NCBI GenBank assembly: GCA_965205945.1
Contig: CBDBIB010000002.1
Coordinates: 160,001 to 224,000, forward strand
DNA from: Bdellovibrionales bacterium
GTDB taxonomy: Bacteria > Bdellovibrionota > Bdellovibrionia > Bdellovibrionales > UBA1609
Length of the DNA stretch: 64,000 nt
Direction of reading: 5' to 3'
Shown: one piece after another, positions 15,001-18,000 of the stretch
Numbering within the stretch: the stretch's first letter is position 1
Layout: each line of letters opens with the position of its first letter
Position numbers: made by a program

Positions 15001-18000
15001 AATCACTATGTTTTTAAAAGAAAGTACTTCTTAATAACGTTTTAGATATTAGATAAAATGGGGGAATAGGGTGCTTAAGATTAATGATATGCTATGACCC
15101 TTTGTTCTCTTTAGTAGCTTGAGTTCAGACTTTTTAAATCTGGTTTAATACTCTATTTTCATGGGCTTAAACACGTATTGCTGGTTTAAAAGGACGTAGA
15201 CAATATGGCAGTTAATGCTGATAAAAGATTCACTATGAAGTTTTTTAGGACTTTGATGTTAAGAGTGTTCAATATGAAACTCTTTCTTTAAAATTCCTAA
15301 AACAGTTTTAACAATATATCTTTTTCTCAGTAAAAGTTTATCAAAAAGTGGTACAAACTTATTCTTCATATTTGATTTTAAATTAGTAATTAACTTAAAC
15401 ACTTTTAGCCATAAGTTTTTTTAAAGAGGTTCTTTTAAGATATACCCCTTATCTCCAAAAAGCTTTCCAAATAAACCATCTGTAAGGTTCTCTAAAGGTT
15501 TGATGGCGACTGATTCTTTTGTTGTTACAAACACTAATAGGGCTTGAGTCTAGAATAGATATTCCTGTAATTTGATTCCATGAGTGAGTTTAGGAAAATA
15601 AAGAGTTAAGGTGCTCAATATTTTTTAAGTTCCACAAACCTATTATAGGACAAGAGTTTTGGGAAATAAGGTTTTAGAAATTTTTAAACATAGCCTATAT
15701 AAAAAGCTTTAAAATTTCTAAAACCAGAAAACTGGAACAACAAACAGATTGTGATAACTTTAGATTCAGATAACGCAGGGGGAAAACCCTTTCTTCCTTT
15801 TTCTGGGTGTGAGTTTGCGCTGTTCGTAATTTAGTCCTAAAATAAAGTCGTCAACAAGAGTAAAAACCTCTATAATTTGGTTCTCTTTGAACTCTTGTTA
15901 ATGGCGACTTAACTACACATGTTACTAATATGAGCCATATGTATTGAGTAATGCAGCTTTAGTAACCCCCTAACATCTCTGGTTGGAATACTTTTAAAGT
16001 TATTAATATGGATGGTGTGCTTTTATAAAACATGCCGATAAGGAGGATTATGTTACTACGTCTATTTACGTCTATTTTAAAATTATATTTAAGTTTAAAA
16101 GTATTTAATTATAAAAGTTTAGACTTTATTTTTTTAAAATTATTATTTTCAATAAAATTTTTATCATTAAAAATAAGGACTGCTTTAGAATTTACTTTAA
16201 AAATATTTAATATTTAGCGCTCTTTTTTTAAAGCTTAGATTTAAATATCTTTATTTATCATAGCTGTTATTTTAACCAACATCTAAGTTTAAAAGTTATT
16301 AAGATACAGCATATGTATTATATAAAATTAAATAAATATTTAAAGCGATATTCTTTAAGGTTTTTTTTTAATATTTATTTGTATAGAGCTATTATTTAAA
16401 TAAGAAAATCTTGTTAATTAAACGTAACTATTTTGCAACATTTTTATGTCACAAAGAAATTTACACTTAAGCACCATAGTTAAAATCAGCAGGTCAAATC
16501 AAAAATAATGTGGTTTTAAGCAGAAATAGTAACATAATCCTCCTTATCGGCATATTTTGTAAAAGCACAGATTTTAAATGAAAATAAAAATGTAGAATTA
16601 GAGCTAAAAAACTATTTAATTTCCTCTAATTGTTAAGCTTTTCATCCGAAATATACAATATGTATAGAGTATATGACTTATTAAAAAATTTCATAGAAAT
16701 AGGTGTGAAAGCTCTAACTTTCTTCACAATTTTACTATTAACTCCCCATTCTCTAGCCACCCCAAGTTCTTTTGTTTTTCAAGGTCAAATTGTAAAACCC
16801 AATGGAGACGCTTTAGAAGAAAATAATGTCAGCTTTCTTGTTCAAGTTTTATCCTCCATGGATCATTGTCTTCTTTACGAAGAAAGTTTTAATCTTAATA
16901 TGATAGGATCAAAGGGAGTTTTTAACTTAAACGTTGGGTCTGGAATAAACACAGGAAATGGAGGCTTAACAAATTTATCTAAAGCTTTAGACAATTCTTT
17001 TTTAAACAATAAAAGTCTTAGTTGTGCCTTTGGGTCTTCATACACTCCAACCTTAAACGATACAAGAAGGCTTAGAGTAACTTTTGATCATGGCAGCGGC
17101 CCTCTTACTTTAACAAATGATCATATAATTCACAGTGTGCCCTATGCTCAGTATGCCGGCAAACTTGGTGGAAAAGCTGTTAATGATTTTATTCAAGTAA
17201 GTCGTGGTGTTACTCAAAGCAATTTAGAGACCGTGTTTGATAATGATGCCAATCAAAGGGAGCTTATGGCTTTAATTAATGGCAGCTCTAATCAATACTC
17301 CCCATTAAGCATCAGTGGAGCTAGCTCTTTACCGAGTTTTTCAAGCTCTCATCCACCACCTAATTCTCAGGCAGGAGATATTTGGTATAACTCTACAAAT
17401 AATCAAATCATGTACTACAATGGATCAGCAGCCACTGTTGTTGGTAAAGGTAGTGGAACTGTAACCAGTATTACAGCAGGAAGTGGCTTAAGTGGTGGAA
17501 CCATTACAAACAGTGGTACAATTTTAATTGCACCAGGGGGTGTTTTAAACAGTCATCTTGCAAGTGGTATTCATGCAAATAAAATCACAAGTGGAATTCT
17601 ACCAAGCTCAGTGGTTCCCACAGGAACTGACAATACAAAACTTCCTCTTACAGGAGGGGTTTTATTAGGTGACCTTAACTTTAATAATAATCAGATTCTA
17701 AACACAAGTCATATTATGCAAAACCCAGGAAGTACCATGACCTTAGGTTCTTATACGAATTTAGAAGAAGTTAGTCTTTTAGGGTCTATGAACATGAGCA
17801 ATGCTGGGGCTACTTGGTACAATAGTGACTCTGGAGCGCTTAAGTATTGGAATGGTGTTAGCTTAGAAGTTTTAAGCACCTTAAGTAGTGCATCAAGTGT
17901 TTTAGTCAATGCTCCTTTAACTTCTTCAGGTGGTAGCAACCCAACAATAAGCATCAACCTTGGTAGGGGTTTATACAACAACAGTGGAAACATAGATTTA

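Follow-up and report, generated by a model that had tools for sequence, protein, structure and literature searches.

Classical invertible DNA switches, namely fimS of E. coli with FimB/FimE, the capsule promoters of Bacteroides with Mpi or Tsr, and the switches of C. difficile with RecV, are operated by dedicated invertases at repeats that bear no relation to dif. Inversion by Xer-family enzymes at short inverted repeats, which varies surface proteins, is described in the available part of PMC3599477 for XerC UU222 of Ureaplasma parvum and Xer1 of Mycoplasma agalactiae; in Ureaplasma, inversion and binding of the putative dif are carried out by different proteins, the latter by CodV, and the available text does not contain the term "dif-like". 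For Acinetobacter plasmids, the accessible sections of PMC9947245 report reversible inversions between pXerC/D sites with identical 6-bp centres, for which the host Xer proteins were proposed to be responsible, and pdif modules with pairs of inversely oriented 28-bp XerC/XerD-type sites (PMC9947245; see also PMC13141974). Literature searches yielded nothing on Xer-driven invertible DNA at dif-like sites, and nothing relevant on XerD/dif DNA inversion at pilin genes or on invertible DNA or phase variation in Bdellovibrio.

Here, a segment upstream of a giant fibre gene of a Bdellovibrionales bacterium (genome G000) was analyzed. It lies in a window of 64,000 nt, which is the whole stretch of DNA that was analyzed, and its features are listed in Table 1. 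We regard it as fairly probable that the segment is a site-specific invertible DNA switch that is driven by Xer recombinases.

Table 1. Features of the switch region (positions in the window)
Feature	Position	Strand	Remark
Segment bounded by inverted repeats	16016-16569		554 bp, upstream of the giant fibre gene
Left inverted-repeat arm	16016-16068	+	repeat search
Right inverted-repeat arm	16517-16569	-	repeat search
Left dif-like core, ATGCCGATAA-GGAGGA-TTATGTTACTA	16032-16058	+	
Right dif-like core	16527-16553	-	sequence of the left core on the opposite strand
Candidate invertible inner segment	16059-16526		468 bp, AT-rich
Left flank	15891-16015	+	about 125 bp; collinear in loci A, B, C, D, F, and H (6/8)
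Y block	16393-16526	+	inner part kept with G029 (about 80%) and in the solo locus
Fixed leader, from switch to gene	16570-16704	+	carries the FliA-like box
Giant fibre gene	16705-23565	+	probable start, by homology with the ATG of G029
IS element remnant	15115-15408		about 290 bp; matches a full copy elsewhere

The two arms in the window have a length of 53 nt each, are 89% complementary, and are separated by 448 nt. The inner segment opens with a 10-bp tandem duplication (16059-16078). It contains no reading frame that is conserved in comparison with the congeneric genome G029, and an Rfam search of 15600-16900 gave no match. A small gene that would start from the Shine-Dalgarno-like GGAGGA of the core and an ATG was considered and rejected, because its frame of 55 codons is not kept in G029; the idea also fails since the centre in G029 has no GGAGGA-type motif. 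The full copy of the IS element, which encodes a DDE_Tnp_1_3 transposase, is 98.7% identical between G000 and G029.

A whole-genome search with the 554-bp segment retrieved eight full-length copies, with identities of 100, 99, 98, 97, 96, 95, 94, and 84%, and one partial copy at C1:289256-289432 that corresponds to segment positions 378-554. The eight segments span 541-599 bp, and their inverted repeats comprise 43-56 bp. All nine copies adjoin a stop-to-stop frame of 1266-2838 aa that opens 61 nt past the repeat, and the switch sites are chromosomal and flanked by housekeeping genes. With all genes turned rightward, two orientation classes with collinear flanks were obtained, i.e., class I with loci A (the locus in the window), B, and H, and class II with loci C, D, E, F, and G. 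Precisely at the edge of the 27-bp core, the inner ends (cgtctattt and tttctgctta) exchange places, and base differences outside of the core remain with their own flank. Orientation and kinship do not coincide: the inner segment of B (class I) is just one base apart from those of D and E (class II), a 10-bp duplication is common to A and B (class I) and C (class II), and the closest paralogues cross the classes (A and G with 98.9%, B and D with 97.3%). The repeat and whole-genome searches confirm the preliminary description, which had reported inverted repeats in front of eight fibre genes, one solo repeat, a split of five versus three orientations, break points within the repeats, and an orientation that is independent of descent.

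Of the 28 positions of a dif candidate of the same genome (C1:58571-58598), 23 agree with the core. The two arms deviate by a single base each, and the other three deviations are in the centre, which is GGAGGA in the switches and GGTATA in dif. This candidate is intergenic and is located at the maximum of the cumulative GC skew (55-60 kb bin). In the left core, the outward-facing arm is taken to be of the XerC type and the inward-facing arm of the XerD type, by analogy. The cores are identical in 14 of the 17 copies, and the remaining three are each one base off. When up to three mismatches were allowed, 17 core sites were found in this genome, none with a reversed control pattern, and none in 100 other genomes of the family. 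The same centre is present at both ends in seven of the eight loci; at locus F the two centres are GGGGGA and GGAGGA, and exchange should therefore be hindered there. The dif-like core with one changed base per arm and an altered centre had been noted before, as had a pattern with 20 hits, and both could be reproduced, the hits being the 17 cores, two sites inside open frames, and C1:58571. The further claim that this form is absent from the rest of the order proved correct for the exact core, but not beyond it, since variants exist. The dif candidate is part of an order-wide pattern, GATAA-N6-TTATGTTA, which had an exact match in 202 of 384 genomes, mostly at a single site and commonly as GATAAGTTATATTATGTTA. 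The exact core had no match in public metagenome contigs; a degenerate core gave nine sites in these contigs and seven in public genome contigs, all of them single and none paired.

Two switches with the core GTGCTGATAA-TATGGA-TTATGTTACTA are present in G029, both upstream of fibre paralogues and in opposite orientations: the inner 556 bp are inverted at an identity of 99.3%, and the flanks are collinear. These cores likewise resemble the dif of their own genome. The Y block is the sole inner part that is conserved between the two species. Three further genomes of the order contain extra dif-like sites that share arm sequence with their own dif, and in two of the three, type IV pilin genes have these sites at their start codons. 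In G091, both arms of the four extra sites are identical to those of the genome's own dif candidate and the centre alone differs; the starts of four pilin genes coincide with such sites, and a ribosome-binding site together with an in-frame start is provided by one outer flank. In G323, two divergent pilin genes have their start codons directly at a segment of 670 bp that is bounded by dif-like sites, and the promoter there must therefore lie within the segment. The match of the arms to the own dif is clear in G091 and weak elsewhere: the outer six nucleotides of the XerC arm agree with the own dif at 4, 4, 6, 4, and 4 of 6 positions and with the dif of other genomes at 1-5, and the sites of G323 match the dif of G000 as well as their own.

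Instead of a dedicated site-specific reaction, homologous recombination at the 43-56 bp repeats might have generated the two orientations, with gene conversion among the near-identical loci helping to spread them, and the likeness to dif would then be a relic, e.g., of an old element that had been integrated by Xer. The fibre paralogues share 92-99% of their residues along about 1700-2100 aa, and therefore gene conversion could copy an inverted segment from one locus to another; the inner variants form a mosaic across the loci, which shows that conversion is frequent. In addition, the outermost arm base is exchanged between the two sites of B relative to A, and at E and G the gene-side flank recurs in inverted form on the far side, which would also fit. 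Nevertheless, we consider this explanation unlikely, because the crossovers fall within the 27-bp core at every locus in two species, the arms are near to the own dif, and the centre is uniform within each genome and yet unlike that of dif. Strand exchange by a tyrosine recombinase depends on a pattern of this kind (PMC9947245). The comparable extra sites at pilin start codons in other genera also argue against homologous recombination.

Another possibility is that the switches are fossils, i.e., that one or a few past inversions were followed by fixation of the loci, and that the two classes just reflect the history of the paralogues. The two orientations were seen across paralogous loci only, the centres of locus F are mismatched, and one locus has lost a repeat, all of which would be in line with this reading. 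Yet decay would not preserve both arms and a uniform centre, and fixed loci are hard to reconcile with the near-identity of the 17 cores, with an orientation that cuts across the kinship of both segments and genes, and with the 99.3% identity of the two opposed copies in G029. Fossil switches therefore seem quite improbable, and we infer that flipping is still ongoing. Of eight public runs that were listed, four contain part of the stretch, and no RNA run is among them. The Logan contigs from these four runs end at the cores and are not assignable to a locus; in one contig of 151 nt, which stems from a different study, the X end is followed by the gene-side flank, and it is uninformative on any single locus because this arrangement is already present at five loci of this genome.

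Next to the structure of the sites, the inventory of recombinases bears on the enzyme. G000 contains a XerC-like gene (C3:142843-143760) and a XerD-like gene (C2:242734-243642), with scores of 160 and 263 bits, respectively, both under the NCBIfam equivalog cut-offs. A XerC-like match was obtained in 60 of the 61 family genomes, nearly all of which have exactly two Xer-type matches. In G029 (98% complete, 10 contigs) there are two tyrosine recombinase matches in total, both Xer-like, and thus no extra Xer-like recombinase of the Mollicutes type, plus a serine recombinase in a frame of 628 aa that is unrelated in size. The three other tyrosine matches of G000 are mobile-element or truncated genes, and two of the recombinase matches in this genome are truncated. 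The Xer pair are the only recombinases that both genomes have in common, the others of G000 being absent from G029, and G091, G076, and G096 each have exactly two tyrosine and no serine recombinase matches. The idea that the xerC adjoining a G029 switch marks a dedicated invertase was rejected, as the fibre cassette is an insertion at this place and G000 has its two flanks joined without interruption. The involvement of a YhgA/Rpn-like nuclease was also dismissed, since none is present in G000, G029, or G323.

Site-specific inversion by a different enzyme would have to be ascribed to a serine recombinase of 238 aa (C3:212393-213109), an integrase of 430 aa (C3:770484-771776), or an unrecognised invertase. 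Both genes look intact, the serine recombinase matches the Mpi master-invertase family weakly (65 bits against a cut-off of 272 bits, E 7e-18), and as the genome is 97% complete, some gene could be missing. However, both genes are found in mobile-element surroundings, the former beside genes for an IS3-type transposase and a GNAT protein and the latter beside Prim-Pol/D5 and small-terminase genes; G029 has switches and yet just its Xer-type pair and the 628-aa serine recombinase frame; and no IS110/Piv-type match was obtained in G000 or G029. Furthermore, the two different 11-bp arms and the 6-bp centre of the core copy dif, and to our knowledge the sites of serine invertases do not look like this. 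The participation of another enzyme is thus very improbable.

Both ends of the segment carry, in inverted orientation, a 28-bp site with the layout of dif (XerC-type arm, 6-bp centre, XerD-type arm). Because these ends closely copy dif, the recombinases of chromosome housekeeping probably also serve as the enzyme of the switch. Provided that inversion is site-specific, the likeness of the arms to dif and the inventory of recombinases make it probable that the Xer proteins act on the switches. The XerC-like and XerD-like proteins would bind to the cores and pair the two sites of one locus, and strand exchange in the shared centre GGAGGA would flip the segment. As the centre is unlike that of dif, the switches should not recombine with dif. 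Activation by FtsK away from the terminus counts as a difficulty for the participation of Xer.

Homology indicates that the fibre gene probably starts with the GTG at 16705, not with the ATG at 16660. The switch is therefore located about 135 nt upstream of the gene; its upstream position had been described correctly, whereas the previously given distance of about 90 bp was probably too short. In class I, including the locked solo copy, the Y block adjoins the gene, and in class II it is about 450 bp away from the gene and has the opposite direction. The Y block is a candidate location of a promoter or another cis element, and it is moderately probable that the class I orientation is the ON state. 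A sigma-70 promoter scan of the Y block gave no convincing candidate: 13 promoter-like sites were found versus 6.7 +/- 3.3 expected, in an AT-rich sequence in which the scan is poorly discriminating. Two other ideas were rejected. A MAFFT alignment hinted at homology between the Y block and the DNA upstream of G029 paralogues without a switch, but this did not hold, as the local alignment score was 22 versus 18-20 +/- 3 for shuffled sequences. GCCGATAA in the core was dismissed as the -10 element of a sigma-28 promoter for the gene, since it faces into the segment and no TTAAG or TAAA is rightly spaced in either flank.

The fixed leader contains a box at 16625-16651, TCTAA-N16-CCGAAA, which is kept in all fibre paralogues of both species. 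In its general form, T-N-W-A-R N16 CCGAWA, it is also present in nine of the 11 G029 paralogues, those without a switch. The box resembles the FliA consensus of attack-phase promoters of B. bacteriovorus, TTAAG-N16-CCGATA, which according to the available part of PMC3627812 is found in 92 of 140 such promoters. As this FliA-like box lies outside of the switch, a simple flip of a promoter is not certain. The promoter may be fixed and the switch merely modulating, so that Xer would flip a segment that acts as an upstream element or by transcriptional interference, or that serves as a module for the recombination of fibre cassettes between loci. The conservation of the box, also in copies without a switch, its likeness to the attack-phase promoters, and the location of the fibre cassettes at non-orthologous places in the two genomes speak for a fixed promoter. 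On the other hand, the box is degenerate here, with agreement at 2/5 and 5/6 consensus positions, and the exact FliA consensus is not enriched in this genome (three sites versus two for the reversed control). The two species have the Y block in common and the solo locus has retained it, and in G323 the promoter must be inside of the segment. A fixed promoter with a segment of another function is not very likely.

Each flip would set one of the eight near-identical fibre genes ON or OFF independently, and a clone would thus display varied sets of fibres. A tentative view for the whole order, in which our confidence is slightly short of even, is that XerC/XerD, the housekeeping system, came to be used for DNA inversion in general, and thus to vary the surface via fibre and pilin genes; copies of dif with an altered centre would flank regulatory segments and thereby lead to stochastic variation of structures for prey contact.

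The fibre protein has a signal peptide, an N-terminal domain, and three DUF285 stretches at the C-terminus. For residues of about 5-200, matching multi-copy frames are present in 89 of the 131 genomes from the order that were compared, and the N-terminal homologues bear Peptidase_S74 or other tips (PF13884, PF11962, PF07603). The tips also differ between the highly similar fibre paralogues. A comparison with PDB sequences, including solved MAT tips, gave no match. MAT proteins are defined by a beta-rich and conserved domain with a length of about 130 aa directly after the signal peptide, many paralogues, and differing tips (PMC10769870); neither "promoter" nor "inversion" occurs in the text of that paper. 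By this definition, and not via the named MATs of B. bacteriovorus, the fibre family would probably belong to the MATs.

If Xer-driven inversion is true, the housekeeping Xer pair also runs phase variation, for which duplicates of its site that differ in the centre are sufficient, and many independent switches could evolve without any new gene. As no invertase gene is needed, screens that are based on invertases overlook such switches, which would explain why they go unannotated. For predators, eight fibres with different tips that are switched separately would be a testable route to bet-hedging in prey recognition, with a bearing on prey range and on the use of predators as living antimicrobials.

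In comparison with known systems, the fibre genes are similar to those of the Bdellovibrio bacteriovorus MATs in being multi-copy and in encoding a signal peptide and a conserved domain at the N-terminus, with tips that are swapped at the C-terminus, but with up to 2838 aa the proteins have about twice the length and terminate in DUF285 repeats. As in the classical switches, a short segment with inverted repeats precedes the gene for a surface structure and occurs in two orientations, and as in Bacteroides and C. difficile, many loci share one type of repeat; in contrast to these switches, there is no dedicated invertase common to both species, and the core of the repeat is a near copy of dif. 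In the Mollicutes, the situation differs in that here the sites copy dif and the universal Xer pair alone is at hand. The pdif modules of Acinetobacter share with the switches the inversely oriented sites of the XerC/D type with identical centres (seven of eight loci here). However, these modules are on plasmids and enclose resistance or toxin-antitoxin genes, whereas the sites described here are chromosomal and enclose about 470 bp of non-coding DNA in front of a surface-fibre gene, at eight loci.

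The window covers positions 160001-224000 of contig C2. The window element is bounded by an inverted repeat whose arms enclose 448 nt of very AT-rich sequence. When the 554-bp element was used as a query against the genome under study (G000; 1.87 Mb, 5 contigs, G+C 32%), eight full-length copies with identities of 84–100% were found (loci A, the window locus, to H), in agreement with the eight repeat-bounded segments before fibre genes of the preliminary description. A ninth copy, at a solo locus, was partial and comprised the last 177 nt only. In all nine cases, a stop-to-stop frame of 1266–2838 aa begins 61 nt further on. 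The repeats of all loci carry a 27-mer core, ATGCCGATAAGG[A/G]GGATTATGTTACTA, which occurs 17 times in G000, 14 times in identical form and three times with one change. The core pattern is not due to chance: its reversed control had no match in G000, and the core was absent from all of 100 other family genomes when up to three mismatches were allowed. The centre of the core is equal at both ends in seven of the eight loci (GGGGGA twice at locus E). The exception is locus F (GGAGGA versus GGGGGA), which may be locked and which has the shortest fibre frame (1266 aa).

For the comparison of orientations, all loci were turned so that the gene pointed right. The element ran one way in A, B, and the divergent H (class I) and the opposite way in C, D, E, F, and G (class II), with both flanks collinear. 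Bases that differ just outside the core remained with their own flank, and the inner ends X (cgtctattt...) and Y (tttctgctta...) were swapped exactly at the core edge. The orientation does not follow descent: the segment of B differs by one base from those of D and E, a 10-bp duplication is common to A, B, and C and thus crosses the classes, and the closest protein paralogues (A–G and B–D) are each of opposite class. Hence, the five-to-three split, the break points inside the repeats, and the independence from descent that had been claimed were all recovered. Loci as similar as these evidently undergo gene conversion, which could carry an inverted copy from one to another, so that we only infer ongoing flipping. 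The public runs offered Logan contigs only, which end at the cores, and no read shows both orientations at one locus.

Positions of features in the window, on contigs C1 to C3 of G000, and in related genomes
Feature	Position	Remark
T2SS-F-like and T2SS-G/pilin-like genes	window 11328-13010	upstream of switch
maf	window 13263-13853	minus strand
lgt	window 13902-14969	
IS element	window 15115-15408 (remnant); C2:261457-262489; C3:594048-595073; L048:13768-14799	
Terminator-like hairpin	window 15777-15798	
Inverted repeat, 53 nt	window 16016-16068 and 16517-16569	arms 89% complementary
Centre GGAGGA, then TT-ATG	window 16041-16050 (core), 16046 onward	reads into segment
Box TCTAA-N16-CCGAAA	window 16625-16651	between switch and gene
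GTG, likely start of window fibre gene	window 16705	
dif candidate AATGCTGATAA-GGTATA-TTATGTTACAA	C1:58571-58598	intergenic; at cumulative GC-skew peak
Fibre gene C	C1:59483-68611	
Switch of fibre gene C	C1:68060-68611	
Cores of locus F	C1:521581-521607, 522063-522089	centres unequal
Far-side flank copy, locus G	C1:651554-651686	inverted
Far-side flank copy, locus E	C3:590466-590600	inverted
Contig end within fibre gene G	C1:657928	
Fibre-gene fragment	C3:23-1991	opens contig
Four sites ATCCCCGATAA-GTGTAT-TTATGTTACAT	G091:C1:1727814-1748702 (L081:2015, 11940; L082:1977, 9685)	two inverted pairs
Three sites ..CTGATAA-TATTCA-TTATGTTAC..	G323:C8:497211-500435 (L083:2212, 4748, 5418)	another family

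The left arm of the core is taken to be XerC-type and the right arm XerD-type, named after the E. coli model. The regular expression of the preliminary description again gave 20 sites in G000, i.e., the 17 cores, two sites within open frames, and the dif candidate. The proposed closeness of the core to dif was also confirmed, with one difference per arm and three in the centre. Exact GATAA-N6-TTATGTTA is present in 202 of 384 genomes of the order, mostly once per genome (GATAAGTTATATTATGTTA being the commonest form listed), which looks like the pattern expected of a conserved dif. Only about 0.9 kb separates the 3′ end of fibre gene C from the dif candidate beyond it.

In the same scan, five sites were obtained for the congeneric genome G029, among them a dif with exactly the sequence found in G000. 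The remaining four share the core GTGCTGATAA-TATGGA-TTATGTTACTA and make up two inverted pairs (spacing about 527 bp), each about 105 nt ahead of a fibre paralogue. Between the two pairs, the inner 556 bp are inverted (99.3% identity) and the flanks collinear (99.8% and 96.2%). Thus, the layout seen in G000, with both orientations and a crossover at the core, is found again with a different centre. The claim that the form is absent from the rest of the order holds for the exact core only; variants such as that of G029 exist. Conservation between the segments of the two genomes (about 80%) is confined to some 110–140 nt at the Y end, and this Y block alone is retained at the solo locus, adjoining its gene. 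As a side observation, the centre and ATG of the G000 core resemble a ribosome-binding site with a start codon; the resulting frame has 55 codons at the X end. At the Y end, it has 13, and the short peptide encoded there (MLLFL.KTTLFLI) has a similar counterpart in G029; the ribosome-binding motif is absent from the G029 centre.

G000 has five matches for tyrosine recombinases and a single one for serine recombinases. Two of the former are Xer-type (XerD-like, 263 bits; XerC-like, 160 bits; both below the NCBIfam equivalog cut-offs), a 430-aa integrase adjoins Prim-Pol/D5 and small-terminase genes, and the remaining two are truncated. The serine recombinase adjoins an IS3-type transposase. G029 has only two tyrosine matches, orthologues of the Xer pair (the XerC-like one 87% identical), and its serine recombinase, a 628-aa frame, belongs to a size class unlike that of G000. 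Neither genome contains a Piv/IS110-type or a YhgA/Rpn-like gene. An XerC-like gene was found in 60 of 61 family genomes and exactly two Xer-type matches in nearly all, which argues that the Xer pair is the housekeeping one and not an additional invertase. The proximity of the xerC-like gene of G029 to one switch (4 kb) stems from the insertion of a fibre cassette at this place; in G000, the sequences on either side adjoin each other. Inversion driven by XerC and XerD is the best reading of these sequences: both proteins would bind the two cores of one locus, and strand exchange within the shared centre would flip the segment. The difference between their centres would prevent a switch from recombining with dif.

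Many sites with a non-dif centre were found in a few other genomes of the order. In G091, from another genus of the family, both arms of four sites equal those of its own dif candidate, and the centre alone differs (GTGTAT versus GTTATA). The sites of the two inverted pairs are 7.7 and 10 kb apart, and four inward-reading type IV pilin genes (MLHSRRPKSLKTKGFSLIELL...) start at the ATG within the XerD-type arm. Of the outer flanks, three resemble one another, and the remaining one brings a ribosome-binding site (AAGGAGG) and an in-frame ATG, like an expression site. Genes for AAA_13, SMC-like, and DUF4143 ATPases lie between the sites, and the arrangement looks like a pilin shufflon made of dif copies. 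In G323, each of three pilin-like genes (MNIIRSQKGFSLIELMIV...) has a site at its start codon, overlapping it. Two of these genes diverge from a 670-bp segment, which looks like an invertible promoter toggle between them. When the six outermost bases of the XerC-type arm are compared, the extra sites match the dif of their own genome at 4, 4, 6, 4, and 4 positions and those of other genomes at 1–5, which is suggestive, and strong for G091 only. None of the dif-like loci in these genomes shows two orientations, so that they support the use of dif-like sites and not inversion itself. No further paired sites were found in scans of metagenome and genome collections. G091, G076, and G096 each have exactly two tyrosine and no serine recombinase matches. 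G076:C1 (L077–L080) carries inverted dif-like pairs, with XerD-type arms outward, around segments of 2.6–10 kb (13 sites genome-wide); these contain YhgA/Rpn-like Transposase_31 genes and, once, a phage portal gene. Transposase_31 matches number 48 in G076, 17 in G091, and none in G000, G029, or G323. At G000 loci E and G, the gene-side flank is repeated on the far side of the switch in inverted form (about 75 nt at E; 133 nt at G, where the copy takes in the initial 14 codons of the longer frame) with no gene following, and these copies may be remnants of a divergent gene pair on one switch, as in G323.

A candidate explanation for the effect of a flip is a promoter or other cis element inside the Y block, which is conserved between G000 and G029 and kept at the solo locus; in G323, moreover, the promoter must be within the segment. 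A simple promoter flip is opposed by the TCTAA-N16-CCGAAA box, which lies outside the invertible segment and is kept in all G000 and G029 fibre paralogues, also in those 9 of the 11 copies in G029 that lack a switch (there as TTTAG or TCAAG-N16-CCGATA). It resembles the attack-phase (FliA) promoter consensus of B. bacteriovorus, TTAAG-N16-CCGATA, which PMC3627812 gives for 92 of 140 attack-phase promoters. The box is degenerate in G000. There, 3 sites fit the exact consensus versus 2 for the control, which is no enrichment. The likely start of the window fibre gene was moved to the GTG on the basis of homology with G029.

The nine G000 fibre proteins are 92–99% identical over the first 1700–2100 residues and 73–85% over the last few hundred. 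Pfam detected three DUF285 stretches at the C-terminus and nothing else, and no sequence match to solved mosaic adhesive trimer (MAT) tips was found. Multi-copy frames matching the first 500 residues occur in 89 of 131 genomes of the order (11 copies in G029), and proteins homologous to the first 200 residues carry Peptidase_S74 or other domains as their tips. According to PMC10769870, the signal peptide of all 21 MATs is followed by a beta-rich domain of about 130 aa. Because of this description, the multi-copy N-terminal family, and the swapped tips, the MAT label is reasonable for these putative trimers. The G000 assembly breaks within this repeat family: gene G runs off its contig, and a fragment opens another. 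G000 and G029 also share an IS element of about 1 kb that encodes a DDE_Tnp_1_3 transposase; it is 98.7% identical in the two genomes, compared with about 84% for other shared DNA. Loci A and H are each immediately preceded by a remnant of about 290 bp, and at locus E a full copy is found at a distance of 4 kb.

Our literature search found no report of chromosomal near-dif switches before surface-fibre genes that are apparently served by the housekeeping Xer pair, and a search of the MAT paper (PMC10769870) for the terms "promoter" and "inversion" had no hit. Already known are invertible switches as such, inversions mediated by Xer on Acinetobacter plasmids, and Xer-family invertases in Mollicutes. 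In Mollicutes, the Xer-family invertase is separate from the dif-binding protein (PMC3599477). On Acinetobacter plasmids, pXerC/D site pairs with identical centres are reported to invert reversibly (PMC9947245), and identical centres within a pair are likewise present at seven of the eight G000 loci.
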